NCBI GenBank assembly: GCA_011364925.1
Contig: RDOA01000051.1
Location: 1-25,792 of the forward strand
DNA length: 25,792 nucleotides
Direction: 5' to 3'
DNA from: Promethearchaeota archaeon
Lineage (GTDB): Archaea > Asgardarchaeota > Lokiarchaeia > Sigyniarchaeales > SOKP01
A program made the position numbers and the translations under genes. Shown here piece by piece: positions 4,141-20,850 of the stretch (its first letter is position 1; each line of letters begins with the position of its first letter). The notes beneath the pieces are model-generated. The model searched no databases, was not told the origin of the DNA, and worked only from the letters and a program-made list of their open reading frames with translations.

Positions 4141-5844
4141 ATGGTCGAAAAATTTTGGTTGAAATCGTATGATGCTCACGTGAAACCAACGCTTACTTAC
4201 CCAACTGATGATCTGGGAACAATTTTAACAACGAAAATGAAAGAATTCCCCGATAAAATTGCGATATATTTCATGGATGCTGAATATACCTATAAGGAAG
4301 TATTAGAGTATTCTCAGAGGTTTGCTACTTTTCTACAGAAAAACGGTATTGAAAAAGGTGATGTTGTATCAATCTGTCTTCCCAATACTCCTCAGTACTT
4401 AATTGCTGTCTATGGAACATATATGGCGGGTGCTACAATCTCGGGCTGCTCTCCTCTCATGAGTGCCCCAGAAATTCAGTACCAATTAGAAGATTCTAAC
4501 GCAAAGGCTATTGTAACAATGGATATAGTTTATGAGAAACGACTTACTCCTCTATTGGAGACATTACCTAATCTTAAGTTGATTATCCCTACCAATATCT
4601 CTGAGTTTATGGGATTTGGCGGTTTTAAGGTTTTTATGGGTAAATTAATTAAAAAGATTCCAAAAGGAAAGATGGATCCATATCCTGGAAGGACCGTTGT
4701 ACCTTTCTTAGAAGCACTCAAGACTGAAGTTGACATTAAAAAGATAAGCATAAATAATAATGTTGATCCAGCTCTAATCCAATATACTGGAGGAACAACT
4801 GGTCGTCCAAAGGGTACAATTATCACCCACGCAAACTTAGTAGCCAATCTTACGCAATTTGATGCGTGGCTTGGAAGGGAACATGGAAAAGAAGTATTAA
4901 TATCAGCGTTTCCCTTTTTCCATATCGCAGGATACTTGATCGGACTCTTTCTCCCCTTCATAAGTGGAACGCAGACATTAATTGCAAATCCAAGGGATAC
5001 CGATCATATAATTAAGGAATTAATGGATAAGAAACCTTCGAGTTTTGGAAATGTGCCAACCTTATTCCTAATGATTATGAATAACCCAAAATTTAAAGAG
5101 GTTCCAGCAGAAGTATTAGATAACATTACTCTCTATGTCAGCGGAGCAGCTCCATTTCCTGAGGAAGCAATAAGAACTTTTGAAAAAGCCTTCCATGCCC
5201 AAAACAAGTTCGTAGAAGTTTACGGTATGACTGAAACGTCTCCTTTAGCAAGTGCAAACCCAGCCTTAGGAACAAAGAAAATTGGAACAGTTGGTCTTCC
5301 ATTGTCAGACACAGAAGTAAAGATTATCGACATCGATACCGGGAAGGAACTAGGTATCGGAGAACCGGGAGAAATTTTAATTAAAGGACCTCAAGTCACC
5401 AAGGGTTATCATAATAAGCCTGAAGAAACAAAGGAAGCGTTTGATAGTGAAGGATTTTTCCATACGGGCGATGTAGGCGTGTTTGACGAGGAAGGTTATA
5501 TAAAAATAGTAGATCGCACGAAAGATATGCTTATTGTTAGTGGATTTAAAGTTTATAGCGTACATGTAGAAGAAGTATTGACAAAACATCCAGATATTGA
5601 AATTTTAGCAATAATCGGAGTACCTAATCCCGATAGGCCTGGTGCTGAAATTGTAAAAGCTGTCGTCCAATTAAAGGAAGGAGTTTCTGAAGCTGACGAG
5701 GTTAAAGAGAGTATAAGGGAATTTGCTGAAGAAAAATTGTCAAAATACGAAGTTCCTAAAATTTGGGAGTTCCGCGAAGAGTTACCTCTTACGCTGGTGG
5801 GCAAGGTTCAGAAGAAAGCGCTTCGAAATAATCCCGAAGGGTAA
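4141..5844 (+). CDS. Long-chain acyl-CoA synthetase (FadD-like)
   Basis: AMP-binding loop YTGGTTGRPKG, YGMTE, HTGD, DRTKD and C-terminal LPLTLVGK. Confidence 0.93.
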   Translation: MVEKFWLKSYDAHVKPTLTYPTDDLGTILTTKMKEFPDKIAIYFMDAEYTYKEVLEYSQRFATFLQKNGIEKGDVVSICLPNTPQYLIAVYGTYMAGATISGCSPLMSAPEIQYQLEDSNAKAIVTMDIVYEKRLTPLLETLPNLKLIIPTNISEFMGFGGFKVFMGKLIKKIPKGKMDPYPGRTVVPFLEALKTEVDIKKISINNNVDPALIQYTGGTTGRPKGTIITHANLVANLTQFDAWLGREHGKEVLISAFPFFHIAGYLIGLFLPFISGTQTLIANPRDTDHIIKELMDKKPSSFGNVPTLFLMIMNNPKFKEVPAEVLDNITLYVSGAAPFPEEAIRTFEKAFHAQNKFVEVYGMTETSPLASANPALGTKKIGTVGLPLSDTEVKIIDIDTGKELGIGEPGEILIKGPQVTKGYHNKPEETKEAFDSEGFFHTGDVGVFDEEGYIKIVDRTKDMLIVSGFKVYSVHVEEVLTKHPDIEILAIIGVPNPDRPGAEIVKAVVQLKEGVSEADEVKESIREFAEEKLSKYEVPKIWEFREELPLTLVGKVQKKALRNNPEG

Positions 5845-5960
5845 ATATTCAATGGGATTTATGAATATTGAAATCGAACTTTAATAAACTTTTTTTATTT
5901 CTTTTATTTTACTTATCTAAGCTTGAGATTCTAGGATATTAATAATTTTTTTGTTTGAAT

Positions 5961-6776
5961 ATGAATATAGAAGATTTCGAAGACATTATTTACGAAAAGG
6001 AAGAAAACGGTATTTGTACAGCAATTTTATCCCAACCTGAAAGGCGAAATGCAGTAACTTATATCACCTTTTTAGAGCTCTATACTGTTATTGAAGATAT
6101 GGAAAATGATAAAAATACGAAAGTTTTGATTATTACTGGTGATCCTAAAGGTGATGCCTTTACATCTGGAGGTTATTTTAGGCCTGAAATGTTCCATAAA
6201 ATGCAGAAATACCCCGAAATAGATTTAATGGATATTGCCCAAAAAAAACTCTGTTTGAAGATGTGGGATTTCCAAAAACCTGTTATAGTTGCAATCAACG
6301 GCATGGCAATCGGTGGAGGAGTTACTATGCCGTTAGCAGCAGGTGATTTAGTCTATATGGCTGAAGATGCATGGTTGGGATTTTTCTTTGCAAGACGAGG
6401 AATAGTTCCCGAGTTTGCTGCATCGTTCCTTTTACCTTTATTGATAGGTTTCCAAAGGGCAAAAGAAATATGTTATTTTGGTGAAAAAGTTATAGCTCAA
6501 CGAGCACTTGAGTTAGGATTGGTAAATAAAGTGCTACCTAACGATGAGTTAATGGAGTATACAAGGGAACAAGCATTAAGATTAATTCCTCCAAAAGGAC
6601 CCAGTCTATCAATAAAATTAATGAAAAAAACAATGCATGCCTATTTTCGCGAAATACTTTCTCACACTTTGGACTTAGAAAACAAAGCTCTTAGGAAGAC
6701 TTTTGCTTCCAAAGATTTTAAAGAAGCTATGTCGGCGTTAGAAGAAAAAAGAGAGACCAAATTTGTTGGGAAATAA
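5961..6776 (+). CDS. Crotonase-family protein, likely enoyl-CoA isomerase type
   Basis: FTSGG and NGMAIGGG oxyanion motifs. Both hydratase Glu positions are replaced (GGGVT; LGFFF), but GIVPE is present. ATG 5961 preferred over TTG 5955. Confidence 0.88.
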   Translation: MNIEDFEDIIYEKEENGICTAILSQPERRNAVTYITFLELYTVIEDMENDKNTKVLIITGDPKGDAFTSGGYFRPEMFHKMQKYPEIDLMDIAQKKLCLKMWDFQKPVIVAINGMAIGGGVTMPLAAGDLVYMAEDAWLGFFFARRGIVPEFAASFLLPLLIGFQRAKEICYFGEKVIAQRALELGLVNKVLPNDELMEYTREQALRLIPPKGPSLSIKLMKKTMHAYFREILSHTLDLENKALRKTFASKDFKEAMSALEEKRETKFVGK

Positions 6777-6852
6777 GATTTTTATTCAAAAATGCGGGTA
6801 ACAGAACACAAAATTAGAAATCTATTTATTAAAAAAGAGAAGATAATACATA

Positions 6853-8406
6853 ATGAAAAATTCAAAATATGATCAAAATCGCGTTATTGATACTTATCCC
6901 GTTATTGTAATTGGAGCCGGTTTAGCCGGTTTAGGTGCTGCCTGCCAGCTTGTAGCTCGAGGAGAACAAGTGCTCCTATTAGAAAAACATAACGTACCCG
7001 GAGGATTTGCTACTTCTTTTGTCAGAGGTCGGTTTGAATTTGAAGGTGCATTACACGAGTTAAGCGATGTAGGAACAGAAGATAACAAGGGCGCTCTCTA
7101 CAGATTTTTGGAGCGGTTAGGAATTGTTCCTGACAAACTTAAATTTAAACAAGTTCCCGAACTTTATAGAAGCGTATATCTTGATGGATATGATGTTACA
7201 TTACCTATCGAAATGGAAGACTATAAGAATACACTCATTGAGCTTTTTCCTCACGAGAGGAAGGGAATTGAAGACTTTCTTGAGGTATGTAAAGCTGTGC
7301 TTGCTGGAGTTGAATATATCGCCTCTAAAGGTGGAAAGTATTCTCCTGGTGAAATATTAAAAGAACATCCATGGTTACCACGAGTAGCAGGGATAACCTT
7401 TTCAGAGTTAATTGAAAAGTTTTTTACAGACAAAAAGTTGATTGCAGTTGTATCTCAATTATGGGGGTATGTCGGTTTACCACCAGACAAAATGAATGCT
7501 TATGTTTTCGTTGCAATGCTAATATTTTTCTTAAAGTGGGGAGCCGTATATCCCGTAGGAAGATCCCATTCTTTATCAAGTGCCATGGTAAGTGCATTCG
7601 AAAACTTTGGTGGTTTGATTAGGTATAACGCCTTAGTCGATAAAATCTTAGTGGAGAATGGAAGAGTGTGTGGAGTTGAATTATTAAATGGGGATGTTTA
7701 TCTCTGTAAAGCAGTTATATCGAACGTAAATCCGATATGCACCACAATGAAAATGCTCACTCCTGAAATTGTTCCTGAAACCTATAAAAAAATGATATAC
7801 ACTCCTGAAATAGGACCATCCGCATTTTCTGTATATCTTGGATTGAATTCATCCCATAAGGAGTTGGGATTTACTGCTCACGAGACATTTATAAACGCTA
7901 CCTATGACATGAATCATGCGTACGAAACATTCCGAACATTAAATCCCCCCGAATATATGGTCGTAGCTTGTTATAACCACATTTATGAGAAGATATCGCC
8001 ACCAGGAACCACAGAACTGGTTCTCACGACCCTCCAAATGGGAAAATTATGGCAAAGTGTAGCGCCAGATCAGTATTTTCGCAAGAAAGACGAAATCGCA
8101 GATAAAATGATCTCCTTGATGGAACAAACGATTTGTCCGGATATAAGAGATCATATAGAAGTAGCCGAAGCTGCAACACCGTTAACTTACTATAGGTATT
8201 CGAAAAATATGGAAGGAGCGATATATGGAACTACCCAAACTGTAGAGAACGGACCATTATTACGATTAAAAAGCAGAGGACCGATTCCTGGTTTATATCA
8301 AGTAGGTGCGTGGACTAATTTTGGTGGAGGATTTACGACGACTATTGTTAGCGGTAGAATTGCTGCTGGAATGTATCTAAAAGACAAAATTGAGGATAGG
8401 TGGTAG
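6853..8406 (+). CDS. COG1233 phytoene-desaturase/RetSat-like FAD oxidoreductase, copy A
   Basis: Rossmann GAGLAG, EKHNVPGG..TSF.RGRFEFE, ATPLT, GAIYG and PIPGLY.VG.W...GGG. Confidence 0.9.
   Translation: MKNSKYDQNRVIDTYPVIVIGAGLAGLGAACQLVARGEQVLLLEKHNVPGGFATSFVRGRFEFEGALHELSDVGTEDNKGALYRFLERLGIVPDKLKFKQVPELYRSVYLDGYDVTLPIEMEDYKNTLIELFPHERKGIEDFLEVCKAVLAGVEYIASKGGKYSPGEILKEHPWLPRVAGITFSELIEKFFTDKKLIAVVSQLWGYVGLPPDKMNAYVFVAMLIFFLKWGAVYPVGRSHSLSSAMVSAFENFGGLIRYNALVDKILVENGRVCGVELLNGDVYLCKAVISNVNPICTTMKMLTPEIVPETYKKMIYTPEIGPSAFSVYLGLNSSHKELGFTAHETFINATYDMNHAYETFRTLNPPEYMVVACYNHIYEKISPPGTTELVLTTLQMGKLWQSVAPDQYFRKKDEIADKMISLMEQTICPDIRDHIEVAEAATPLTYYRYSKNMEGAIYGTTQTVENGPLLRLKSRGPIPGLYQVGAWTNFGGGFTTTIVSGRIAAGMYLKDKIEDRW
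6977..7022. repeat. 46-bp perfect inverted repeat IR1, left arm (partner 12220..12265)
   Basis: tattagaaaaacataacgtacccggaggatttgctacttcttttgt equals the reverse complement of 12220-12265 (compared by hand). Confidence 0.9.
7715..7757. repeat. 43-bp perfect inverted repeat IR2, left arm (partner 11491..11533)
   Basis: ttatatcgaacgtaaatccgatatgcaccacaatgaaaatgct equals the reverse complement of 11491-11533. Confidence 0.9.
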
Positions 8407-8413
8407 AATTTTG

Positions 8414-9598
8414 ATGGAAGACATTAAAAAATATCAAAAAGCTGAAAAAATTAAGAAACAAAGAGAAGATCTCCAAACTATTCCATGGTATTACGATGGA
8501 TTAGAGAATTTATGCAACAGAATCCACCCCGGTAAGCAACTTTTAAGAGTTACTGACATAAAGCAACTTTCTTCTGATACAAAATTGTTTCGATTTATCT
8601 CCGCGAACCCAAATAAACAACTCGCCCCATTTCGTGCTGGACAATATATAGGGTTAACGGTCGAGATAAACGGAGCGAGAAGTTCGCGCCCATTTTCAAT
8701 AGTCTCCTCTCCAAATCAGTTATCTTATTACGAGTTAGGAGTAAGAATAAAAGAAGGTGGATTTGTTAGCCCGTTTATAGTTAATAATCTAAAAGTTGGA
8801 GATATCTTAGAAGCCTCTGAACCTCTTGGAAATTTATATTACAATCCACTGTTTCACGGAAAAGATTTAGTTTTCGTAGCAGGAGGGTGCGGAATTACCC
8901 CTTTTATTTCAATGCTAAAAGATATCAGTGAGAGAGACATTCCTTTGAACATATGGTTGATATTCGGATGTTTAACAGAAAAAGACATACTCTTTAGAGA
9001 GGAGTTAGAGGATATTCAGGAAAGAAGACCAAACATTCACGTTAGATACATCCTTTCTGAACCAGATGTTGATTGGAAAGGAGAGTGTGGTTTTATCTCA
9101 AGGGATAAAATATTAAAAGAAGTTGGCACCATCGAAAAGAAGTATTTCTATGTGGTTGGGAACAGAGCCATGTACGAATATGTAAAAGAAGAATTAAGCC
9201 ATCTTGGAATACCTCAACATAGAATCTATTTCGAAGCTTTTGGAGTTCCCGATGATGTTACTAAAGTTATTGGTTGGCCTTCAGATCTAGACTCATCGAA
9301 TAAATTCCAAATCACATTAGAATACAGACAATACTCACAGAAAGAGAAAATCAAATTCGAAGCAATGTGTACAGAACCTTTACTGAATAGTTTGGAACGA
9401 GCGTTAAAAAGTAAAATTACTATTGAAAACGCTTGTAGATCTGGCGAATGCGCTCTTTGTCGAACTAAAATGATATCAGGTAAAGTTTTTGTACCCCCAG
9501 AAGTGACAGTACGCGAAGTTGATAAGTCTTTTGGCTTTATACATCCTTGCGTGTCCTACCCACTTGCAGATATCCATTTGGATTTAACATTAACTTAG
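8414..9598 (+). CDS. FNR-family flavin reductase with C-terminal plant-type [2Fe-2S] domain (PaaE/Hcr/PDR-like architecture), copy B
   Basis: FRAGQY, RPFS, GFVS, AGGCGITPF, then CRSGECALC plus a distal Cys in HPC. ATG 8414 preferred over TTG 8390. Confidence 0.9.
   Translation: MEDIKKYQKAEKIKKQREDLQTIPWYYDGLENLCNRIHPGKQLLRVTDIKQLSSDTKLFRFISANPNKQLAPFRAGQYIGLTVEINGARSSRPFSIVSSPNQLSYYELGVRIKEGGFVSPFIVNNLKVGDILEASEPLGNLYYNPLFHGKDLVFVAGGCGITPFISMLKDISERDIPLNIWLIFGCLTEKDILFREELEDIQERRPNIHVRYILSEPDVDWKGECGFISRDKILKEVGTIEKKYFYVVGNRAMYEYVKEELSHLGIPQHRIYFEAFGVPDDVTKVIGWPSDLDSSNKFQITLEYRQYSQKEKIKFEAMCTEPLLNSLERALKSKITIENACRSGECALCRTKMISGKVFVPPEVTVREVDKSFGFIHPCVSYPLADIHLDLTLT
8877..8918. repeat. 42-bp perfect inverted repeat IR3, left arm (partner 10331..10372)
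   Basis: tagcaggagggtgcggaattaccccttttatttcaatgctaa equals the reverse complement of 10331-10372. Confidence 0.9.
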
Positions 9599-9599
9599 G

Positions 9600-9656
9600 T
9601 AGTTTTTTCTTTTCTTTATAAAATAGAGATAAAAAACTAGATTAGAATTAAAAAAA
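9600..9656. terminator. Probable bidirectional terminator between the convergent modules
   Basis: A T-tract follows the + strand stop and an A-tract precedes the - strand stop. There is a 9-bp inverted repeat, tagtttttt (9600-9608) / aaaaaacta (9631-9639). Confidence 0.5.
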
Positions 9657-10838
9657 TCACATTAAATCAAGAGTTAAGTTTGTCAGTGGATAAGAAATAC
9701 ATGGGTGTATATATCCGAACTTTTGATCGACCTCTCTGATGGTTACTTCTGGTGGCATAAATATCTTCCCCGATATTAATTTTGTCCTGCATAAAGCACA
9801 AGCTCCTGAACGACACCCGCTTTCAATTTTTAATTTCGAACTAAAATTTCTTTCAATACTATTCAAAATCGGCTCAACGCATGGGGCTTCAAAACTTTCT
9901 TCTTTTACTTGGTTCATTTCAATATATCTTATCGTAATTTCAACATTATTCGAAGAATTGAGATTGCTAGGCCAACCTATTACTTTAACAACATCATCAG
10001 GATTACCGTAAGCCTCGTAAGTAATACGATGCTTAGGAACTCCAAGATCTTCTAATTCTTTGAAAACGAATTGATACATATCTCGATTTCCAACCACATA
10101 AAAGTATTTACCTTTAACATCTCCAATTACCTTCTTAATTATATCTTGAGTGATAAATCCACATTCTCCTTCCCAACCAGAATCTGCTTCTGAAAGAACA
10201 TATTGTACCTTAACATTAGAGCGGCGGTTTTTTATATCTTCAAGCTCTTGTCTAAAGATTATATCTCCTTCAGTAAGACAACCAAATAACACCCAAATAT
10301 TGATAGGAAGCATCCGTTCAGAAATGTCTCTTAGCATTGAAATAAAAGGGGTAATTCCGCACCCTCCTGCTATAAAAACCAAATTCTCGCCATGAAATAG
10401 ACTATTGTGATAGAAAGTGCCTAAAGGTTCAGTACATTCAACGATATCGCCTATATCTGAATTATTATAGAAGTATACGCTTACAAATCCATCTTCTTTC
10501 TTTCGAATACAAAGCTCATAATAAGCGTGTTGATTCGGAGATGAAACCAAAGAGTAGGGTCTTGCAGTCCTTACTCCGTTTATCTCTACTGTAAGACCGA
10601 TATATTGACCTGCTCGAAATGGTGGCAATATTTTTGTCGATTTTGCCGGAATTAATCGATATAATTTCGTATCGTGAGAAAGGTTTTGAATATCTGATAT
10701 TTGTAACCACAACTTACCAGGATGAATATTATCATGGAGATTTTCCATACCGTCAAAATATTCAGGGACTTCTAGGACTTTTTCGCGCCATTCTTTGAGC
10801 TTTTGAGCGTAAGTAAATTTTTTCAAGTCTTTAAACAT
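9657..10838 (-). CDS. FNR-family flavin reductase with C-terminal [2Fe-2S] domain, copy B'
   Basis: FRAGQY, RPYS, AGGCGITPF and CRSGACALC...HPC. Collinear paralog of 8414..9598. GGAGGGGTG lies upstream of the ATG. Confidence 0.9.
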   Translation of the reverse strand: MFKDLKKFTYAQKLKEWREKVLEVPEYFDGMENLHDNIHPGKLWLQISDIQNLSHDTKLYRLIPAKSTKILPPFRAGQYIGLTVEINGVRTARPYSLVSSPNQHAYYELCIRKKEDGFVSVYFYNNSDIGDIVECTEPLGTFYHNSLFHGENLVFIAGGCGITPFISMLRDISERMLPINIWVLFGCLTEGDIIFRQELEDIKNRRSNVKVQYVLSEADSGWEGECGFITQDIIKKVIGDVKGKYFYVVGNRDMYQFVFKELEDLGVPKHRITYEAYGNPDDVVKVIGWPSNLNSSNNVEITIRYIEMNQVKEESFEAPCVEPILNSIERNFSSKLKIESGCRSGACALCRTKLISGKIFMPPEVTIREVDQKFGYIHPCISYPLTNLTLDLM

Positions 10839-10841
10839 TTT

Positions 10842-12377
10842 TTACACCCCTCCCTTTTCCCTTTCTTCTAAATACATACCGGCTGCCATTCTTCCACTTG
10901 TAATACTTGTTGAATAGCCACCTCCGAGATTTACCCATGCACCCGCAAAATATAAACCCGGAATTGGACCTTTACTGTTCAATCTCAACATCGGGCTGTC
11001 TAATAAGTCTTGCTTATATCCATAGATAGCACCATTCAAACTTTTTGAATAGTGGTAATATGTTAACGGAGTGGCTGCCTCTGCAGTTTCAATACTTTCT
11101 CTTAGATTGGGATAAAGTAAATCTTCAGCCATATCAATCATGTGATTCGCCATTTCATCTTTTTTACGATGATATAGATAGGGAGAAACAGTGTACCAAG
11201 ATTTCCCATCCTGGAGTATAGTCAATACTACTTGACTCGTTCCTGGTGGCGAAATATCCTCGTACATAATATTGTAGCAAGATGCTAAAAGATATTTAGG
11301 CCGTTCTATTCTAAGGGTACTAAGGTACTGTTCTTCTAAATTATATGTTGAGTTCATAAATATCTCAAAATGAGTTATACCCAAATCTTTTGGTGTTGCG
11401 TTTAACCCTAAGTAGACAGTAAATGCGGATGGTCCGATATCTGGTGCGTATACTCGCTTTTTGTAAAGATCTGAAACATTTTCCCGAGGAAGCATTTTCA
11501 TTGTGGTGCATATCGGATTTACGTTCGATATAATTGCCTTACATGGATACTTTTCTCCGTTGAGAAGTTCAACACCAGTTACTTTTCCCTCCTTAACAAT
11601 AATTCGATTAACTAATGCGTTATATTTAATAGTTCCTCCCAATTTCTCAAAGCATTCAACGATTATATTTGACAATGCGTGAGATCTACCAACGGGGAAA
11701 ACAGCATCATCTAAGAGAGCCACTAACACGAGGAAGTAGTACATAGCATTCACTTTAGATGGAGGTAATCCCTCGTAACCCCACAATTGAGACGCAACTG
11801 TTCTTAATTTTTGATTTTTAAAACATCTATCAAAGACATCGCTAAGGGTTAATCCTCCAACGCGAGCTAAATATGGATGCTTCATTAAAATCCCTAATGG
11901 ACTCACTTTCCCCTCTTTTGCTGCTACATAATTAAATCCTTCTCTGACTTTAAAGACTATATCTCTGTATTTATTAATCCCCTTTTTCTCATTTGGGAAC
12001 AATTCTATTAATTTTTCGAAATAAGTATCTCTCTCGTTTGGAAAAGTAATGTCCAAACCATCGTAAAAAACGCTTCTACAGAGATCTGTTGGTTTTTTAA
12101 ATTCGATTTTGCTTAAAACTCCTAAATCCTTAAAGAAATCGTAAAGACTTAAAGGATGTTCCTCGGTACCGACTTCTGCTAATGCGTGTAAGGCTCCTTC
12201 AAATTCGAACCGCCCTCGAACAAAAGAAGTAGCAAATCCTCCGGGTACGTTATGTTTTTCTAATAATAATACTTTCTCTCCCGAGAGTGCAAGTTGACAA
12301 GCAGCTCCAAGACCTCCTAAGCCCGCACCAATAACAACAATAGGTAATTCATTTTTATTCATATTTTCTTTTTCCAT
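10842..12377 (-). CDS. COG1233 phytoene-desaturase/RetSat-like FAD oxidoreductase, copy A'
   Basis: GAGLGG, EKHNVPGGFATSFVRGRFEFEGALH, ATPLT, GAIYG and GPIPGLY. Collinear paralog of 6853..8406. Confidence 0.9.
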   Translation of the reverse strand: MEKENMNKNELPIVVIGAGLGGLGAACQLALSGEKVLLLEKHNVPGGFATSFVRGRFEFEGALHALAEVGTEEHPLSLYDFFKDLGVLSKIEFKKPTDLCRSVFYDGLDITFPNERDTYFEKLIELFPNEKKGINKYRDIVFKVREGFNYVAAKEGKVSPLGILMKHPYLARVGGLTLSDVFDRCFKNQKLRTVASQLWGYEGLPPSKVNAMYYFLVLVALLDDAVFPVGRSHALSNIIVECFEKLGGTIKYNALVNRIIVKEGKVTGVELLNGEKYPCKAIISNVNPICTTMKMLPRENVSDLYKKRVYAPDIGPSAFTVYLGLNATPKDLGITHFEIFMNSTYNLEEQYLSTLRIERPKYLLASCYNIMYEDISPPGTSQVVLTILQDGKSWYTVSPYLYHRKKDEMANHMIDMAEDLLYPNLRESIETAEAATPLTYYHYSKSLNGAIYGYKQDLLDSPMLRLNSKGPIPGLYFAGAWVNLGGGYSTSITSGRMAAGMYLEEREKGGV

Positions 12378-12520: not shown

Positions 12521-13345
12521 TTATTTCCAACGCCATTTGGGCTTGGTTTTTTGAAGACGAGCAAGAGCGCCATTAACAGCGTCTTTGGTTTGAAGCAATT
12601 GAGAACTTACAAGCGTTTCAAGTTCTAAACCTAATGCGGTATCTTTGCCATAGCAGTCATCGATTAACTTTTTTGCTAATCCTACAGCAAGCGGTGCACT
12701 ATCAATAAGTTCATCAGTGTACATTTTAATTATTGAATTAAGTTCATCTCGTGTTTTTACTACACGATTTACTACGCCTAGCCTGTATGCTTCATTTCCA
12801 TCAAATCTACGTCCAGTTAATACGATGTCTTTAGCATTTGGGACACCGACTAATCGAGTTAGACGGTACGTTCCTCCTACATCTGGATTCATACCGATTT
12901 TAGTCTCTAACATGTGAAAATCAGCGGATTCCGTACAGAATCGAAAATCACAAGCAAGGGCTAGTTCAAAAGCCATTCCAAAGCAAAAACCGTTAATCTT
13001 TGCTATAACGGGTTTTTCCATTTTCTCAATTTTAGTAAAAATGGGTTGAATCCAAGTGTTAGCAAAGTATCTAAAATTCCTTGGGATTCGCAGATCTGGA
13101 ACAACCCCTTCAGGATCCCTTTCTTGACCTGTTAAAAATTTCAAGTCAATTCCTGAACTAAAGAACTCGTCTCCTCCAGTTATAATCACAACTCTCGCAT
13201 CAGTGCGTTCTACTTTGTCAATTGCTTTTTGAAGTCCAACCATTAAATCGTAATTCATTGCATTTTTTTTGTCCAAACGATTCATTTTTATAGTAATAAT
13301 AGTTCCATCTTCGTTTTCCTCAATCAAAACTGCTTTATCATCCAC
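12521..13345 (-). CDS. Enoyl-CoA hydratase/isomerase (crotonase family)
   Basis: FSSGIDL, NGFCFGMAFELALACD, LETKIGMNPDVGG. GTG start. Confidence 0.92.
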   Translation of the reverse strand: MDDKAVLIEENEDGTIITIKMNRLDKKNAMNYDLMVGLQKAIDKVERTDARVVIITGGDEFFSSGIDLKFLTGQERDPEGVVPDLRIPRNFRYFANTWIQPIFTKIEKMEKPVIAKINGFCFGMAFELALACDFRFCTESADFHMLETKIGMNPDVGGTYRLTRLVGVPNAKDIVLTGRRFDGNEAYRLGVVNRVVKTRDELNSIIKMYTDELIDSAPLAVGLAKKLIDDCYGKDTALGLELETLVSSQLLQTKDAVNGALARLQKTKPKWRWK

Positions 13346-13420
13346 AATTTTTCAACTAATTATGTTAATTCAATTTGAATAAATATAGTAAAGGTAAAAA
13401 AAAAATGTATAAATTTTTTA

Positions 13421-13870
13421 TTATATTGCTTCGAAATATTCGATATCTAAAATTCTTTTTCTTGGGTTCTCTTTAAAAACTGCTTTAACTTTCATTCCTA
13501 TTCTCAGTTTTTCTGGGGCGCTTTCCTTTATTATGTGAACAAAATCAGTATCTGCACCGTCGAGTTTAATAATCCCATAAGCGAAAGGTGGTTCTAACGG
13601 CATAATAGGAGTTGAATGCGTTACAACAGTGAACCCCTTAACTATTCCTTGGTTCTGGACTTCAACCCACTCATCCATTTTTTCGAAACATTCGTGGCAT
13701 ATCATTTTAGGAGGAACATGCACCTTATTGCATTTTGGACACTTTACACCTAAAATTTTATTGCTCTTTCCGATTTCGGTTATGAACCTTTCAACATATG
13801 CCCCACCAGTATGCTTGTAAGGAACTTTAATCCTTCCGCGATAAACTTTTTTCTCAATATCGTCTGTCAT
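13421..13870 (-). CDS. DUF35 Zn-ribbon/OB-fold acyl-CoA-binding protein (COG1545)
   Basis: CPKC...PP...CHEC, FTVV, YGIIKLDGAD and IGMKVKAVF. Start at ATG 13870 has GAGGCGTGA 5 nt upstream. Confidence 0.92.
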   Translation of the reverse strand: MTDDIEKKVYRGRIKVPYKHTGGAYVERFITEIGKSNKILGVKCPKCNKVHVPPKMICHECFEKMDEWVEVQNQGIVKGFTVVTHSTPIMPLEPPFAYGIIKLDGADTDFVHIIKESAPEKLRIGMKVKAVFKENPRKRILDIEYFEAI

Positions 13871-13883
13871 TTTTATCACGCCT

Positions 13884-14378
13884 CTATTCTTCCTCCTTAA
13901 TTATTCTAAAATAGGGGATGTCTGCCGATAAATCACCCTTACGTTCTTCACTAAATACCGCTTCAACTCTTTGTCCGATCTTCATCTTGCTTACATCAGT
14001 TTCATCAACGAAATGCATTGTATAGGTATCAGCTCCATCTAATTTGAATAATGCATAACCATACGGAAATGGTCGAATACCACCTGTAGAAGGATCAGTA
14101 AAAGGATAGTTTACTACTGTGAAACCTTCTAATGTGCCTTTAGGAGGTAATTCTACCATATCGTCTATTTTCATTTCCACCAAGCAATCTGCACATACTG
14201 CTCTAGGGGGAAAGTGAACTTTTTCACATTTCGGACACTTGCTTCCTAATATTTTTTTATTTACTTTTAACTCTTCAAAAAATTTTACAGCAAGTTTTCC
14301 AATTGAGTAACGATATGGTAAATCTGTTTTCCATTTAATCTCGAAAAAGTCTTTTTTCAATTTCCTGTTTTTACTCAT
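13884..14378 (-). CDS. DUF35 Zn-ribbon/OB-fold protein (COG1545)
   Basis: CPKC..VHFPPR.VCADC, YGYALFKLDGAD and IGQRVEAVF. Start moved from 14426 to ATG 14378, which has GAGGTGA 5 nt upstream. Confidence 0.92.
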   Translation of the reverse strand: MSKNRKLKKDFFEIKWKTDLPYRYSIGKLAVKFFEELKVNKKILGSKCPKCEKVHFPPRAVCADCLVEMKIDDMVELPPKGTLEGFTVVNYPFTDPSTGGIRPFPYGYALFKLDGADTYTMHFVDETDVSKMKIGQRVEAVFSEERKGDLSADIPYFRIIKEEE

Positions 14379-14383
14379 TTTTT

Positions 14384-15556
14384 TCACCTCATAGGATTTT
14401 TTCCTAAAATCATAATTTCTGTCCACAGACTTCCACCGAATCCCATTGCGAGTGCTTTTTCAACATCTGGTACTTGACGTTTTTCACCGCGTCCCATAAT
14501 TTGAATAGCTGCTTCAGCTACTCTTACCAATGCCGTAGCACCAATAGGGTTTGTACTTAAAACTCCTCCAGAGGGATTTACAGGTAATTCTCCACTCATT
14601 TGTGTAATTTCTTCATCAAGTAATTTTCCTCCTTCTCCAGGTTTACAAAAACCTAAAGCTTCCGTCCAAGAGAGTTCACTCCAGGAAGTGGGTTCATAAA
14701 TTTCAGCAACGTCTAAATCCTTGACTGGATTGCTTATTCCCGCTTTTTTATACGCTTTCTTTGATGCGATTGTTGCAGTGGGGAGATCGAACATCTTATC
14801 ATCAGTTCCAAAAGTATAATAATGAGCAGTTTCTACAGCATGAACCCACGCAGGATTATCGGTAATCTTTTTAGTTTCTTGTTCGTTAGCATAGATAAGA
14901 GCACAAGCCCCTTCGCTTTGAGGACAACAATCGTGCAGCCGCAAGGGGTAGGATATCATTTGTGAGCTCATAACATAATCAATCGTAATGTTTGGCATCT
15001 GCAGGTGAGCAAACGGATTGTTAGCGGCGTTACTCCTATTTTTTACTGTAACTTTAGCGGCTTGTTCCGGTGTAATTCCATACTTAGCAGAGTACATACC
15101 TGCCATTAGAGCGAGTGGACCTAACGCTCCAGCTAAAGAGGGACGTTCCCAGACTGGATCGAAAGCAGTAATTATGCCCGTTGTTGCACCACCTTCGTTC
15201 AATTTTTCCCAACCTACTACAAGAACATTATTATATATTCCTGATGCCACATTGTGATAGCCACAGATTGCTAAGGAACTACCGGTAGTTCCTCCTGTAG
15301 CTACTTTCACAACTGGTTTAAGGTAACCTGGTGCTGCTTCAATTCCGCACAATAATTCCGAAAAATTAATTCCTTCGAAATGATCCATATTCCCAATAAT
15401 TACAGCATCAATCTCTTTAGGTTCGAGTTGAGCATCGTCAAGCGCCATTTTAACCGCTTCATAAATCATCTCGGGAATATTTACATCTCTTCTCTTACTT
15501 CTAAATTTTGTTTGTCCTATGCCGACAACGGCTACATCGTGTTTAGGTATTTTCAA
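14384..15556 (-). CDS. ltp3: SCP2-thiolase-fold protein without catalytic Cys; Ltp3-like putative retro-aldolase subunit
   Basis: GQTKF.SKR.DV, D.FEG, ATGGTTGSS in place of CxxG, WEK, AEIYEPTSWSE and SGGVLSTNPIGAT. These match my recollection of actinobacterial Ltp3; orthology not searched. Confidence 0.8.
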   Translation of the reverse strand: MKIPKHDVAVVGIGQTKFRSKRRDVNIPEMIYEAVKMALDDAQLEPKEIDAVIIGNMDHFEGINFSELLCGIEAAPGYLKPVVKVATGGTTGSSLAICGYHNVASGIYNNVLVVGWEKLNEGGATTGIITAFDPVWERPSLAGALGPLALMAGMYSAKYGITPEQAAKVTVKNRSNAANNPFAHLQMPNITIDYVMSSQMISYPLRLHDCCPQSEGACALIYANEQETKKITDNPAWVHAVETAHYYTFGTDDKMFDLPTATIASKKAYKKAGISNPVKDLDVAEIYEPTSWSELSWTEALGFCKPGEGGKLLDEEITQMSGELPVNPSGGVLSTNPIGATALVRVAEAAIQIMGRGEKRQVPDVEKALAMGFGGSLWTEIMILGKNPMR

Positions 15557-16695
15557 TCACCTCCAAAAATTAAAACGCAGTTTCCTTGAGAACATATACC
15601 GTTCATGCCGTAAGCAAGGCCGGTTTTTGCATTAGGGATCTGCCTCCTATCCGCTTTTCCTTGTAGTTGTAAAACTATCTCAGCTACTCTAATTAAACCG
15701 TTAGCCATGGCTGGATTACTCGATAACACGCCTCCTGAGGGATTTACCGGAATTGAACCGTTCATTTGAGTTTCACCGCTTTCAATAAACTTGCCACCCT
15801 CCCCTTTCTCACAGAGTCCTAACGCTTCATAGATCATTAATTCATGAATACTGAAATTTTCACTGACTTCGCACACATCCAAATTTTCAATAGGGTTACT
15901 TATTCCTGCCATTCGATATGCTTCCTTAGCGGCTAACTCTAATCCAATTAAATCAGTCATGTTTCTATTCCCCAAATAATACGCATCTGTGCAACTTCCA
16001 TAACCTTTAAGCCAGATCGGGGTATCTGTCATTCTTTTTGCAACATCTTCTTTTGCTAGAAGCATGGCAACTGCTCCGTCCGAAAATGGAGGAAAATCTA
16101 AAGTTTTTAGGGGATAAGCCATCATCTTAGAATTAAGAATGTCTTTGAGCGTAACCTCCTTCTGCAAATGCGCGTAAGGATTGTTGAGGGCATTTTTGCG
16201 GTTTTTCACCACAACTCTAGCAGCTTGATCTTCTGTTACCCCATATTTATTCATGTACATGTTCGCCATTAAACCCGCTGAGGATATTTGATCAAGACCT
16301 AAGTGCCTTTGATAGTATGGATCAAATATCGTATTATTTACAAGATATTGATCCACCTCAGAGCATTTGCAATGTGAGACTACCATTACTGTATCATAAG
16401 ACTCCGATAGAATTCTCATTGCCCCATACACAAAAGCGAAAGCTCCATCTCCAGAAACTCTCGATTCTGACTTTCTCACCGATCCTACAGCATCTTGTAT
16501 AGCCATGTTTGCAATGGTTCGCCCATCATTAAAATCATTCGACCCAGTGATTACACAACCAACATCATCATTGGTAATGCCTAATTCATTGTGTAGCTTC
16601 TTAACTACCTCAAATACAAGTTCAGAAATAGTCTGATCTATCTTTTCTGCCTCATATTTGGTTTGCGCACATCCAACTATTGCAACTTTATCCAT
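15553..16695 (-). CDS. ltp4: SCP2-thiolase-fold protein without catalytic Cys; Ltp4-like putative retro-aldolase subunit
   Basis: GSNDFNDGR, ESRVSGDGAFAF and NPSGGVLSSNPAMANGLIR resemble Ltp4 (recalled as GSSDYLAGR, ESHVEMD). 4-nt overlap with the ltp3-like gene. Confidence 0.78.
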   Translation of the reverse strand: MDKVAIVGCAQTKYEAEKIDQTISELVFEVVKKLHNELGITNDDVGCVITGSNDFNDGRTIANMAIQDAVGSVRKSESRVSGDGAFAFVYGAMRILSESYDTVMVVSHCKCSEVDQYLVNNTIFDPYYQRHLGLDQISSAGLMANMYMNKYGVTEDQAARVVVKNRKNALNNPYAHLQKEVTLKDILNSKMMAYPLKTLDFPPFSDGAVAMLLAKEDVAKRMTDTPIWLKGYGSCTDAYYLGNRNMTDLIGLELAAKEAYRMAGISNPIENLDVCEVSENFSIHELMIYEALGLCEKGEGGKFIESGETQMNGSIPVNPSGGVLSSNPAMANGLIRVAEIVLQLQGKADRRQIPNAKTGLAYGMNGICSQGNCVLIFGGD

Positions 16696-16855
16696 TTTTA
16701 TTTGTCTCTTTTTTTAATTAATTATGAAAATTAATTATATTATTGATTGAATTACTATAAAGGCTTTTAATATTGTATCTTGAACAATAAAAACATTATA
16801 AATTAGTAAAATAATAATATAAAAAAAGCTAGATAAAGTAGAAATAACTAATAAA

Positions 16856-18409
16856 CTACTTATCCTCAAATATTTTTCCAGTTTTAGCTTCTTCTTCTTC
16901 ACGAAGTGGTTGTTTCATAATTTTTCCAGTAGGAGTTTTAGGTAAATCGACCCTGAATTCCACATACTTCGGTACTTTAAAATCAGCTAAATGCTTTCTA
17001 CAATAATCGATAATTTCTTCTTCAGTAACAGATTCTCCTTCTTTCAATACTACGAACACTTTAGGTAATTCTCCATAAATCTTGTCACGAACACCTATAA
17101 CAGTACCCATCGAGACCGCAGGATGAGAATATATCACTTCTTCGATTTCTCTTGGATATATGTTTTCCCCTCCCCGGATAATCATATCTTTCTTTCGATC
17201 AGTTATGTAGAAAAAACCATCCTCGTCCATGTGACCAATGTCTCCAGTATACAACCACCCATCTTTAAGAGTTTCTGCGTTTGCTTCAGGATTTTTGAAG
17301 TATTCTTTCATGACATTATCACCTTTAATAACAATTTCACCATTAATATTTGGTGATAGATCATTCCCCTCGATATCTACAATTTTCATTTCATTACCAG
17401 GTAAAGGCAAACCGATACTACCTATTTTCCGCCTATCTTCGGTTTCGGTTGGGAGAGGATTGATCGAAGACGCGCACGTTCCTTCTGTGAGACCATAGCC
17501 TTCAACTATTTTGCAATTAAATGTTTCTTCAAACGCTCGAAATACCTCTACAGGAAGAGGCGCTGCTCCACATATCACAAATTCTAGTGATGTTAAGTCA
17601 AGATTCTCGTGTGGCATTCTTAGTAATATTGAAAGCACTGTAGGAACACAACTGAAAGTAGACGCCTTATACTTCGCAACAGTATTCCAATGAGTCTGGG
17701 CCGAAAAACCTGGAGTTAAAATACAACTAGCTCCTATTGTAAACGGTCCCATGACTGTAACTATTTGAGCATTCACATGGAATAATGGCAAGATTAGCAT
17801 AAATCGATAGTGTTCTTTTGCTTGCAGAACTTCTTTAATCATTTCTGCATTTCTTCTAATGTTAAAATGAGTTTGTAGCACACCTTTAGGAAAGCCCGTA
17901 GTTCCTGATGTGTAAAGAATAGCCGCGGGGTCTTCTTTTTCATCAATTTCAACTTCAGGAGGATCTTCAGATGATGCTTTCTGCATTAATTCATTAAAAT
18001 CCAAGGTACCTTCAGTAGGCTCTCCAATTACGATTATGTGTTTTAAATTGGGGAGATCTCCTTTAATTTCATTTACTACTGGCAATAGTTTCGGAATAGT
18101 TACAATTGCTTTCGCTTCTGAGTGCCCAACTACAAATTTTACTTCTCTCGGTTTAAACAACGCATTTACGGGACCTGTTACCGCACCTAGTTTAGGAATT
18201 CCTAGGTATAAATAAACATATTCAAGCATGTTTGGTAAGTAAATGCTTACTTTATCTCCTTTCCGAATACCTAAGTCATATAAAAAATTAGCAACTTTAT
18301 TCGTATTCTCGTCCAATTGAGAATAAGATATTGTTTCTTCTTGCCAAAATATAAAAGTTTTATCCTTATACTTCTCTGCTTGACTTTTAACTAATTCTCG
18401 TAGATTCAT
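16856..18409 (-). CDS. Acyl-CoA synthetase (FadD/LcfB-like)
   Basis: YTSGTTGFPKG, PLFHVNA, GYGLTE, YTGD, DRKKDMIIRGGENIYPREIE and LPKTPTGK. Confidence 0.94.
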   Translation of the reverse strand: MNLRELVKSQAEKYKDKTFIFWQEETISYSQLDENTNKVANFLYDLGIRKGDKVSIYLPNMLEYVYLYLGIPKLGAVTGPVNALFKPREVKFVVGHSEAKAIVTIPKLLPVVNEIKGDLPNLKHIIVIGEPTEGTLDFNELMQKASSEDPPEVEIDEKEDPAAILYTSGTTGFPKGVLQTHFNIRRNAEMIKEVLQAKEHYRFMLILPLFHVNAQIVTVMGPFTIGASCILTPGFSAQTHWNTVAKYKASTFSCVPTVLSILLRMPHENLDLTSLEFVICGAAPLPVEVFRAFEETFNCKIVEGYGLTEGTCASSINPLPTETEDRRKIGSIGLPLPGNEMKIVDIEGNDLSPNINGEIVIKGDNVMKEYFKNPEANAETLKDGWLYTGDIGHMDEDGFFYITDRKKDMIIRGGENIYPREIEEVIYSHPAVSMGTVIGVRDKIYGELPKVFVVLKEGESVTEEEIIDYCRKHLADFKVPKYVEFRVDLPKTPTGKIMKQPLREEEEAKTGKIFEDK

Positions 18410-18563
18410 TTATATTTCCTCATTGATTGTTTCTTAATTCACATCATTAATTTCTGAATTGAGTAAATCTTTGCTTTTTAAAATTTAAATATTATTAAAT
18501 TTAATATTTTATTCAATAAATTAAACAATTGCAATACAAAAAATAAAAAGAGGAATTAAAAAA

Positions 18564-19463
18564 ATGTCTGAAGATAATCCCGAAAATAAGTTGGTTATTT
18601 CAGCCGCATTAGCCGGTGCAGTTACAACTAAGGCTAATAATCCAGACGTTCCATATACGGCTGAAGAATTTGGAGATGAGGCGAGGAAATGTTATGATGC
18701 AGGTGCTGCTATTGTTCATATCCATGCTCGAGATCCTATAAAAGGCAATCCAACGCATGATTTAGATTTAATAAAGGCAGTATTAGAGAATATTAAATCA
18801 AAAGCGCCTGATATAATAATCAATTTAAGTACAGCAATTAGTACTGTTGCAACAGATAAACAAAGAATTGCCCCTGTTCAAACATATAAACCACCTTTAG
18901 CATCCCTAAATACAGCATCTATGAATTTTGCGGTTGGTGATTACAGAACTGGTAAAGTTGGTATGGGAGCTGATAACATTTTTGCAAATACTTTTAAAAC
19001 CATTTCTAAATTTGCAAAAGAGATGAAAAAAGTTGAGACTAAACCAGAAATGGAAATTTATGACTTAGGCGGTTTGTATAACATGCTCTTCTTAAATAGG
19101 CAAGAAGGTGCCTTTACACAACCTCTTCATTTTCAATTCGTATGGGGCGTTCTTGGAGGAATTCCATTCAATCCAAAGAACCTCTCTTTACTGCTCGATT
19201 TAATACCTCCAAATGCTACTTGGAGTGTATGTGGCGTTGCTAAGCAACAATTTCAATCAGCATTATGTGCTGCAGCTTTAGGAGGACATATCCGCGTTGG
19301 TTTAGAGGATAATACTCGTGTAGTAACAGGCGAACTAGCTAAAGGGAGTTACGAACAAGTCGCATGGGCTAAAAAAGTAGCTGAAGATGCCGGACGAGAA
19401 ATTGCTCAAGGAGAAGAAGCTAGAAAAATATTCCATCTGAAACAAGGACATGTAGAGTTATAA
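18564..19463 (+). CDS. BKACE beta-keto acid cleavage enzyme (DUF849/Kce family)
   Basis: NPDVPYT, GAAIVHIHARD (metal HxH), ASLN..SMNF, KPEMEIYD and GGHIRVGLEDN. Confidence 0.93.
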   Translation: MSEDNPENKLVISAALAGAVTTKANNPDVPYTAEEFGDEARKCYDAGAAIVHIHARDPIKGNPTHDLDLIKAVLENIKSKAPDIIINLSTAISTVATDKQRIAPVQTYKPPLASLNTASMNFAVGDYRTGKVGMGADNIFANTFKTISKFAKEMKKVETKPEMEIYDLGGLYNMLFLNRQEGAFTQPLHFQFVWGVLGGIPFNPKNLSLLLDLIPPNATWSVCGVAKQQFQSALCAAALGGHIRVGLEDNTRVVTGELAKGSYEQVAWAKKVAEDAGREIAQGEEARKIFHLKQGHVEL

Positions 19464-19564
19464 TTTTTCGTACAGCTCATTGATAATTAAAAACAACTTT
19501 TTTTATTTATTTTAATTTCAAAAATTTTTACTAGCTTCAAGTTGGCAATAAAAAAAGGAAAATA

Positions 19565-20080
19565 TTAACCTTCTAATAAGTTCTTCTTACGAATGTATTC
19601 ATCTTCGGATATTTCTCCTTTAGCTAATTGAAGCTTTAGAATTTTCAAAGGGTCAGTTTCTTTTGTTTCGTCTATCTGTCCTTCAAGGGGAGTTCTCAAA
19701 TCATCAAGGGACATTTTTATTAACATACTCAATTGATTATTTAATCCCGCTTCAAAAGTATTTAATCTTGCCTTTAGCATTTTTTTTCCCAATTTTGGGC
19801 TTTTTGTATCACTTCCCGTTATCAACTTTATGTCTAGATTAAACGATACTTCAGTACCAGACGATGTCTTGTTAAATAATACAGGAAATTTAACTTCCAT
19901 ATTCGTAGCAGGCAATAACTGAAATATGGTTTGATTTTCTTCACGAGGTCCTATCTCAATAATCTCGATCTTCGCGTTCCCTTCCCAAAACGATTTGGTT
20001 GTGAAAATTTCAATGAATTGCTCAAAAAATTTTTTGAAATCTGCTGGAATATCTTTGATTAAATCAACAATAATAACCAT
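19565..20080 (-). CDS. Hypothetical protein with C-terminal SHOCT domain
   Basis: C-terminal PLKILKLQLAKGEISEDEYIRKKNLL matches the SHOCT pattern. GGTGA lies upstream of the ATG. Confidence 0.75.
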   Translation of the reverse strand: MVIIVDLIKDIPADFKKFFEQFIEIFTTKSFWEGNAKIEIIEIGPREENQTIFQLLPATNMEVKFPVLFNKTSSGTEVSFNLDIKLITGSDTKSPKLGKKMLKARLNTFEAGLNNQLSMLIKMSLDDLRTPLEGQIDETKETDPLKILKLQLAKGEISEDEYIRKKNLLEG

Positions 20081-20247
20081 TTACTCACCATTGAAATAAT
20101 TAAAATGATAATTGTGATTTTCTAATAAAAGTGTATCTAATTCATAAAATGTAATAAATAAAGAAAATAAAAAAGTTAAATTTAACTTCTTCAGATATTT
20201 CTCTGATAACTTATAGCACAAAAAATTACCAAAAAAATAAATTAAAA

Positions 20248-20847: not shown

Positions 20848-20850
20848 CTT

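Follow-up and report, generated by a model that had tools for sequence, protein, structure and literature searches.

Flavoproteins of the CrtI superfamily, among them CrtI, CRTISO and RetSat, act on the C=C bonds of polyenes. RetSat and CRTISO use reduced FAD to saturate or isomerise a double bond, their substrates being retinol and carotenes and not coenzyme A (CoA) esters, and we know of no dedicated FNR/[2Fe-2S] partner for either of them; CrtI passes its electrons to quinones or O2 and works without a reductase partner. In E. coli-type FadH, an old yellow enzyme (OYE) FMN domain, a [4Fe-4S] cluster and a FAD/NADPH domain are combined, and electrons run from NADPH through flavin, Fe-S cluster and flavin to the C=C bond. 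The present work concerns a stretch of 25,792 nucleotides from a Promethearchaeota archaeon (contig RDOA01000051.1; ~35% G+C), hereafter the window, in which a CrtI-fold flavoprotein, A, is encoded directly ahead of B, a reductase that joins an FNR-type FAD/NAD(P)H module to a [2Fe-2S] domain, and in which a second pair of the same kind, A' and B', faces the first. Comparison of genomes strongly supports A and B as a dedicated functional pair, which we tentatively interpret as a reductase of C=C bonds.

The closest precedent, at the genetic level, is the limonene dehydrogenase system of Castellaniella defragrans, in which CtmAB, a COG1233 enzyme, works together with a [2Fe-2S] ferredoxin, CtmE, and an NADH:ferredoxin oxidoreductase, CtmF (PMC4109377). 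The original prediction, made from the letters of the window, had stated that no characterised system with such a pairing was known, which is too strong since this one is characterised genetically. CtmAB and the delta-24 sterol desaturase of Sterolibacterium denitrificans are both heterodimers of subunits 26-27% identical, with FMN bound covalently to a conserved His (PMC11061730). The likeness to the pair described here lies in a COG1233/CrtI-superfamily flavoenzyme being tied genetically to a [2Fe-2S] carrier and an NAD(P)H-linked reductase and, as we propose for A-B as well, in O2-free action on a hydrophobic unsaturated substrate beside CoA-dependent catabolism. The two systems nevertheless differ in several respects. 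The A family lacks the covalent-flavin motif, and the flavin of A is taken as non-covalent; the window holds one A per B, with A and A' 56% identical and placed in opposed operons; the ferredoxin and the reductase of Ctm are separate proteins of other families, whereas B joins both in one chain (FNR-Fer2); and Ctm oxidises its substrate, whereas a reduction is the more likely direction for A-B.

A literature search returned only the Ctm and delta-24 sterol desaturase papers as relevant, and nothing was found on the A-B family; both superfamilies are well known, and no studied member of their combination came to light. The A-B pair is a widespread variant within known superfamilies. What is new here is its context of isomerase-type crotonases and FadH, a measure of the co-divergence of its two partners and the history of the mirror locus.

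Fold and domain make-up of A and B

The gene order A-B >< B'-A', with gaps of 7 and 3 nucleotides inside the pairs, had been read correctly in the original prediction and agrees with the open reading frames (ORFs), the Pfam matches and the sequence itself; all four genes are intact.

6853..8406, plus strand: A, CrtI-fold FAD flavoprotein, proposed catalytic component; 517 amino acids (aa); Amino_oxidase/NAD_binding_8
8414..9598, plus strand: B, FNR-type FAD/NAD(P)H reductase with C-terminal plant-type [2Fe-2S] domain; 394 aa; FAD_binding_6, NAD_binding_1 and Fer2
9657..10838, minus strand: B', second reductase; 393 aa; domains as in B; 62% identity to B
10842..12377, minus strand: A', second CrtI-fold flavoprotein; 511 aa; 56% identity to A; 3 nucleotides ahead of B'

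An AlphaFold2 (AF2) model of A, with 47 homologues as input, reached a predicted local distance difference test score (pLDDT) of 93.9 and a predicted template modelling score (pTM) of 0.91. A Foldseek search with this model returned CrtD first (4rep; template modelling score 0.81/0.86, E 2e-38), followed by CrtI (4dgk) and 3ka7, and A is predicted to adopt the CrtI-type three-domain FAD fold. CrtI and CrtD, the closest solved folds, have non-covalent FAD and an N-terminal GxGxxG as A does, but the sequence identity is only 19-20%. A also shares its superfamily with RetSat and CRTISO, and its best NCBIfam match is the carotenoid isomerase family TIGR02730 (carot_isom); the score of 158 bits, against a curated cut-off of 586.9, sets it apart from CRTISO. 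The crtI_fam family (TIGR02734) is not reached either, with 153.6 bits for A and 151.4 bits for A' against a cut-off of 238.1. The A family carries the signature GG[FCY]A[TS]SFxRGRFEFExxLH[EQ]L, and the segment F-E-F-[DE]-x-x-[LI]-H of A presumably resembles that of RetSat. Homologues of A at 47-94% identity are nearly all from Asgard archaea (Promethearchaeota/Lokiarchaeota, Hod-, Thor- and Odinarchaeota), and at least 1,103 cluster representatives match A at E<=1e-30. Database names in the family are generic, for example 'phytoene desaturase' or 'prolycopene isomerase'.

The CrtI/CrtD fold, together with a CrtC-like lipocalin gene near a third copy of the pair in the host genome, could be taken to mean that the pair is biosynthetic and desaturates or saturates the organism's own isoprenoids (carotenoids or membrane-lipid chains), in the manner of CrtI/CrtD or of geranylgeranyl reductase with ferredoxin. 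This seems very improbable to us. The host genome (G000, 100% complete by markers) has no match to phytoene/squalene synthase (PF00494), whereas 8 of 14 control genomes do; the pair stands in catabolic-looking runs of ligases, crotonases and thiolase-like genes; and a patchy occurrence in the phylum (50 of 151 genomes), with apparent transfer between archaea and bacteria, is unsuited to a core lipid enzyme.

The covalent-flavin motif that defines the Ctm branch, G-F-[LR]-x-[NS]-[TL]-H-A, was found in none of the 108 A-family sequences and in none of 148 representatives, A itself having GRFEFExxLH; membership of A in that branch was rejected on this ground. The motif also bears on the idea that A is oxidative like CtmAB and the delta-24 sterol desaturase, carrying out an O2-independent allylic hydroxylation or desaturation on a hydrophobic compound, with B as electron outlet or reductive activator. 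Such an activity would be in line with the genetic need of CtmAB for CtmE and its clustering with CtmF (PMC4109377), with the action of the delta-24 desaturase, a member of the same branch, on a sterol side chain (PMC11061730), and with the thiolase-like, DUF35 and sterol carrier protein 2 (SCP2) genes nearby. We judge it quite improbable: besides the missing motif, the single A per B in the window stands against a heterodimer of two subunits 26-27% identical, and moving electrons from C-H oxidation up to NAD(P)+ would be thermodynamically unfavourable.

B has the domain order FAD_binding_6, NAD_binding_1 and C-terminal plant-type [2Fe-2S] domain with its four Cys. Its motifs are RPFS, GGCGITP and C-x4-C-x2-C...C, and CRSGECALC...HPC is kept in both B and B'. 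Domain order and cofactor motifs are the same as in the class-I oxygenase reductases (phthalate dioxygenase reductase, 2pia; PaaE; KshB; Hcr), but B falls under all equivalog cut-offs. The nearest NCBIfam families are PaaE (141.2 bits against 420.8), Hcr-type PRK10684 (126.1 against 383), GbcB (128.8 against 500) and MmoC, every score being under the curated cut-off. B further differs from these reductases by ~45 additional N-terminal aa, the linker between A and B where the two are fused, and by its proposed client, a flavoprotein and not a Rieske, di-iron or hybrid-cluster protein.

Linkage of A and B across archaea and bacteria

Co-occurrence of A and B homologues was named in the original prediction as the test on which the pairing could fail, and neighbourhoods were surveyed in two samples. 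In the first, B homologues (E<=1e-45) were located in 151 genomes across the phylum, and in 45 of the 49 places found an A homologue was the immediate neighbour, on the same strand; of the four unlinked places, three lay at a contig end or close to one. No B accompanies the A homologues that have as little as 28-31% identity, which are probably true carotenoid enzymes. The second sample, with one genome per prokaryotic species, gave 80 A loci from Asgard archaea and at least ten bacterial phyla (among them Myxococcota, Chloroflexota, Actinomycetota, Thermodesulfobacteriota, Bacillota, Spirochaetota, Pseudomonadota and Bdellovibrionota), and B was adjacent in 78 of them. Many of the Bacillota loci come from animal-gut Clostridia, while those of Pseudomonadota are from Halopseudomonas, Oleispira, Thalassolituus, Alcanivoracaceae and Robiginitomaculum. 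The pair extends beyond archaea and anaerobes, the groups that the original prediction had proposed for a survey, and is also present in Oleispira, Thalassolituus, Alcanivoracaceae, Halopseudomonas and Leptospira.

The two proteins also occur as natural fusions, both in the order A-B (P0123, P0130, P0131, P0139, P0179, L045, L046, L047 and L052) and in the order B-A (P0148 and L094). The AF2 model of an 881-aa fusion from Dehalococcoidia (pLDDT 92.4, pTM 0.92) forms a single compact body. In one 971-aa protein from a metagenome (P0231), A is joined to another reductase, made of Pyr_redox_2 and a [2Fe-2S] domain of the BFD type; the recruitment of a second, unrelated [2Fe-2S]-linked reductase suggests that A needs such a supply. 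Pairwise identities among A sequences follow those among their B partners with r=0.93 over 63 pairs, and with r=0.67 in the deep comparisons, the highest value in 1000 label shuffles being 0.13. Contig C60 of the host genome carries a third pair, A3 and B3, with 35% identity to A and 38% to B, respectively. Because of the adjacency in both samples, the fusions in both orders, the correlated divergence and the compact model of the fused form, the proposal that A and B are a dedicated functional pair is strongly supported, and their linkage can be called obligate.

Two exceptions to the simple pair were met. The sample's only complete genome with A and B unlinked is the closed genome G038, where B and A lie ~130 kb apart (L024:9543-10643 and L025:9114-10607) and B adjoins a RuBisCO-like gene. 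In the Asgard family f19, a single B comes after an array of two or three divergent A paralogues (A-A-B or A-A-A-B; L020:3442-7726, L021:8492-12732 and L022:1917-7757). One reductase may supply several catalytic subunits there, or else the A subunits may assemble into heteromers.

The families nearest to B by name, PaaE, MmoC, GbcB and Hcr, are reductases of oxygenases or of hybrid-cluster protein (Hcp), and one could suppose that the adjacency to A is functionally meaningless and that B serves an enzyme of that kind. We give this hardly any chance. All those family scores are under cut-off, and the window is free of oxygenase, Hcp and carotenoid genes, as had been noted from the start. The whole host genome has no match to Rieske (PF00355) or PaaA/C (PF05138) proteins, and its sole prismane-family gene lies on contig C32, away from any B. 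Adjacency and co-divergence oppose the idea, and the fusions bring it near refutation.

The pair thus stays together, or is fused, in two domains of life and in very different habitats, from Asgard archaea of anoxic sediments, syntrophs and animal-gut Clostridia to marine hydrocarbon degraders and Leptospira. If a reaction could be assigned, thousands of genes that now bear the label 'phytoene desaturase' or 'prolycopene isomerase' would gain an annotation, and the system is a compact one, of two genes or one fused gene, open to direct co-expression testing.

The acyl-CoA neighbourhood and the proposed reaction

In the window, each pair ends a run of genes that is opened by an acyl-CoA ligase and has a crotonase directly before A or A', an arrangement that the original prediction had also noticed. 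The left run has the order ligase 1, crotonase 1, A, B, and the right run, on the minus strand, ligase 2, two thiolase-like genes, two DUF35 genes, crotonase 2, A', B'.

4141..5844, plus strand: acyl-CoA ligase 1, opens the left run; 567 aa; AMP-binding and AMP-binding_C
5955..6776, plus strand: crotonase 1, PaaG-like isomerase type, directly upstream of A; 273 aa; ECH_1
12521..13345, minus strand: crotonase 2, canonical hydratase type, upstream of A'; 274 aa; ECH_1
13421..14426, minus strand: two DUF35 (zinc-ribbon/OB-fold) genes; zf-ChsH2 and OB_ChsH2_C
14384..16695, minus strand: two SCP-x/thiolase-like genes; Thiolase_N and Thiolase_C_1
16856..18409, minus strand: acyl-CoA ligase 2, opens the right run; 517 aa; AMP-binding

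The two crotonases are only 25% identical and the two ligases 33%. Because the 3.9-Mb host genome holds only 18 crotonase genes, the presence of one directly upstream of both A and A' is not due to chance. Ligase 1 is matched best in NCBIfam by long-chain-fatty-acid--CoA ligases, all under cut-off, and its orthologues precede crotonase 1, A and B in many Asgard loci; ligase 2 belongs to the PRK06187 long-chain-fatty-acid--CoA ligase subfamily (527 bits, above the cut-off of 476).

Crotonase 1 has its best solved relatives in PaaG of T. thermophilus (6sl9, 1.6e-32) and of E. coli (4fzw_C). PaaG is the delta3-delta2 isomerase of the phenylacetate pathway, with Asp136 as proton relay (PMC9493321). 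Both hydratase Glu are missing in crotonase 1, which has a Glu at the position of Asp136. Asgard archaea and Dehalococcoidia alike have a crotonase of this PaaG-like kind immediately before A, without the two hydratase Glu and with an acidic residue at the position of the proton relay. Crotonase 2 keeps both catalytic Glu and has hydratases/dehydratases as best solved relatives. In both Halopseudomonas and Robiginitomaculum, A is immediately preceded by a gene for a clear homologue of delta3,5-delta2,4-dienoyl-CoA isomerase (E 1e-52 and 1e-46, respectively, against 2vre/1dci), and the operon order is isomerase, A, B, ligase, with a FadH-like gene ahead of the isomerase in Robiginitomaculum. 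The Asp/Glu/Asp positions are kept in the Halopseudomonas alignment and are Glu-Glu-Asp in Robiginitomaculum.

Among the 80 loci the commonest neighbours are crotonases (19/80) and acyl-CoA ligases (18/80), spread over at least seven separate lineages, followed by SCP-x thiolases, iron-type alcohol dehydrogenases (Fe-ADH), acyl-CoA dehydrogenases (ACAD) and DUF35 proteins. SCP2 and Fe-ADH accompany the pair in the usual Asgard operon. FadH-like OYE/Pyr_redox_2 genes stand beside it in L061, L040 and L088; besides Robiginitomaculum, an Asgard locus and a gut Massiliimalia locus have them, and proteins resembling the hydratase/dehydrogenase/SCP2 multifunctional enzyme type 2 (MFE-2) are found with thiolase and ACAD in others. 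Some loci have biotin carboxylase, ACAD and ligase near the pair, a set that by analogy recalls isoprenoid-acid catabolism of the Atu/Liu type. Since isomerase-type crotonases, ligases, FadH-like reductases, SCP2 and thiolases adjoin it, these gene contents point to the breakdown of unsaturated acyl-CoAs, probably hydrophobic ones, as the setting in which the pair acts. The lipid or acyl-CoA substrate that the original prediction had suggested fits these conserved neighbours.

Other genes of this kind are numerous in the host. Positions 12521-22272 of the window hold three thiolase-fold genes with DUF35 partners, one gene for a beta-keto acid cleavage enzyme (BKACE) and one for an ACAD, and in the genome as a whole, genes for hydrophobic acyl-CoAs are unusually abundant for an archaeon (18 crotonases, 9 SCP2-domain genes, 3 OYE-family genes).

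In the reductase class to which B belongs, electrons normally flow from NAD(P)H (-320 mV) to flavin and on to the [2Fe-2S] cluster. We tentatively propose, at somewhat under an even chance, that each A-B pair is a self-contained, NAD(P)H-driven, two-component C=C reductase. The flavin of B would accept hydride from NAD(P)H, and single electrons would pass through the C-terminal [2Fe-2S] cluster of B to the non-covalently bound FAD of A; reduced A would then hydrogenate a C=C bond of an unsaturated acyl chain. The substrate in this locus would most probably be a CoA thioester produced by the ligase of the same run, such as a conjugated/polyunsaturated fatty or isoprenoid acyl-CoA. The neighbouring protein of the crotonase fold, a PaaG-like isomerase on the left and a canonical hydratase on the right, may then shift or hydrate the remaining double bond, and the chain could enter the thiolase/aldolase-type cleavage encoded alongside. 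The electron direction, the reduction of C=C and the CoA-ester substrate are inferred, the literature search having found no experiment on any member of the A-B family; the reductive direction is favoured because the flow from NAD(P)H to a client is the usual one and because desaturation back to NAD(P)+ would be strongly uphill.

The same electron logic is found in FadH, and the pair lies in operons with dienoyl-CoA isomerase and ligase; this is a functional analogy only, for the folds are unrelated and neither A nor B has the OYE domain (PF00724, Oxidored_FMN). Replacement of a missing FadH by A-B was considered and rejected. The host has a 676-aa FadH-like gene, and FadH-like genes adjoin the pair in the three loci named above. 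The pair is therefore more than a stand-in for an absent 2,4-dienoyl-CoA reductase; it works alongside and adds to FadH-type reductases without taking their place.

Several observations weigh against a reductase of acyl-CoAs. The host genome also encodes FadH-like enzymes, and genes for such enzymes are found even in operons with the pair. The neighbours are variable: the orthologue of A' in a genome of the same genus is set among three short-chain dehydrogenase/reductase (SDR) genes, the third copy of the host stands beside a glycyl-radical enzyme, a cation diffusion facilitator (CDF) transporter and Ldh2, and many gut-Clostridia loci have no CoA genes nearby. The nearest characterised system of a COG1233 enzyme with ferredoxin, Ctm, is an oxidising one. 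Finally, the top NCBIfam match of A (158 bits against 586.9) is a carotenoid isomerase, a non-redox enzyme dependent on reduced FAD.

This last point leads to another view of the pair, in which A is a non-redox isomerase dependent on reduced flavin, like plant CRTISO, which would shift a double bond of an unsaturated acyl chain in position or between cis and trans, while B would do no more than keep the FAD reduced and active. TIGR02730 does score marginally above crtI_fam for A, some homologues are named 'prolycopene isomerase' in their sources, and the neighbouring crotonases are themselves of isomerase types; where FadH-like reductases are already present in the same operon, a further reductase may be needless, and in the aerobes that have the pair a reduced flavin would need constant re-reduction. 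On the other side, both NCBIfam scores are far under their cut-offs, and a stoichiometric, often fused reductase with three cofactors would be a heavy cost for occasional re-activation. B is moreover kept in 78 of 80 loci, including those of strict anaerobes, where the reduced flavin would persist. We consider an isomerase of this type unlikely, though it is a serious alternative.

Under the reductase proposal, the pair may even represent a third, so far undescribed class of O2-independent enoyl/polyenoyl reductase, beside 2,4-dienoyl-CoA reductase (DECR) of the SDR type and FadH of the OYE/Fe-S type, a possibility that we regard as doubtful but not far-fetched. Such a class would act on double bonds closed to DECR and FadH, conjugated or methyl-branched, in polyunsaturated or isoprenoid acyl-CoAs, and Asgard archaea, syntrophs, gut Clostridia and marine oil degraders would be able to catabolise such lipids or use them as electron sinks. 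An assigned reaction would add a step to the anaerobic breakdown of unsaturated or isoprenoid lipids, and it would bear on lipid handling by Asgard archaea, which are dependent on the disposal of reducing equivalents.

The convergent locus, its history and the third pair

The two pairs of the window meet tail to tail across a short spacer.

9599..9656: convergent spacer of 58 nucleotides; an oligo-T run past each stop codon, read from the sequence

After the stop codon of B the spacer reads TTTTTTCTTTTCTTT, and on the other strand TGATTTTTTTAATT runs across the stop codon of B'. The stop codon of A (TAG, 8404-8406) is followed after 7 nucleotides by the ATG of B at 8414, which matches residue 1 of B'; a mechanical ORF list had started B at a TTG at 8390. 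The stop codon of A' (TAA) is separated by 3 nucleotides (AAA) from the ATG of B'. Purine-rich sites resembling ribosome-binding sites lie within the upstream genes A and A', with a GGAGG-like one ahead of B'.

The description 'mirror-duplicated' in the original prediction was overstated, as A' is an old paralogue. A FastTree tree built from 108 sequences of the A family places A together with the only copy in a genome of the same genus; A' has a long branch and clusters, at a support of 98, with the second copy in G144, a different genome of the family. The identity between A and A' is 56%, against 71-87% for A orthologues. In G065, a genome of the same genus, the orthologues of A' and B' (78% and 73% identical) are on another contig, between the three SDR genes. 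Several relatives have ligase, crotonase 1, A and B facing a block of crotonase 2, two DUF35 genes and two thiolase genes, and in some of those with the facing layout SCP2 and an Fe-ADH come after B. A recent inverted duplication was rejected from the tree and the synteny. Because A' groups with second copies and sits elsewhere in G065, the arrangement A-B >< B'-A' is best understood as two old paralogous pairs brought tail to tail.

Against this background of old divergence, three perfectly identical patches in inverted orientation sit at homologous positions of A/A' and B/B'.

6977..7022 = 12220-12265, inverted: 46 identical nucleotides in A/A'
7715..7757 = 11491-11533, inverted: 43 identical nucleotides in A/A'
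8877..8918 = 10331-10372, inverted: 42 identical nucleotides in B/B'

The gene pairs that hold them have 64-65% nucleotide identity and an identity of 0.43-0.44 at third codon positions. The longest identical run expected in A/A' is ~15 nucleotides, and ~0.01 such patches would be expected per gene pair; the patch in B/B' is a run of 13 identical codons, with an expected count of ~0.015. Short-tract gene conversion between the inverted copies would be the simplest reading. The patches could also mediate in-frame inversions that lead to chimeric genes.

The third pair of the host genome, A3/B3 (L012:9942-12733, contig C60), is transcribed divergently from minus-strand genes at 5879-9773 for a glycyl-radical enzyme (987 aa, PFL2/dehydratase group) and for its activase; an SDR gene and the CrtC-like lipocalin gene lie near it. 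Glycyl-radical enzymes flank the pair also in two Dehalococcoidia loci, in one Desulfobacterales locus and in one locus of a 'Rickettsiales' metagenome-assembled genome. A role of the glycyl-radical enzyme as a fumarate-adding (X-succinate) synthase of a bbs-like pathway was considered and found unsupported, the protein belonging to the PFL2/dehydratase-lyase group with scores under all equivalog cut-offs. In the tree of 108 sequences, the Asgard sequences of the A3 type are nested among those of gut and rumen Bacillota and a few Thermodesulfobacteriota, a placement which suggests that the pair as a whole has passed between archaea and bacteria.

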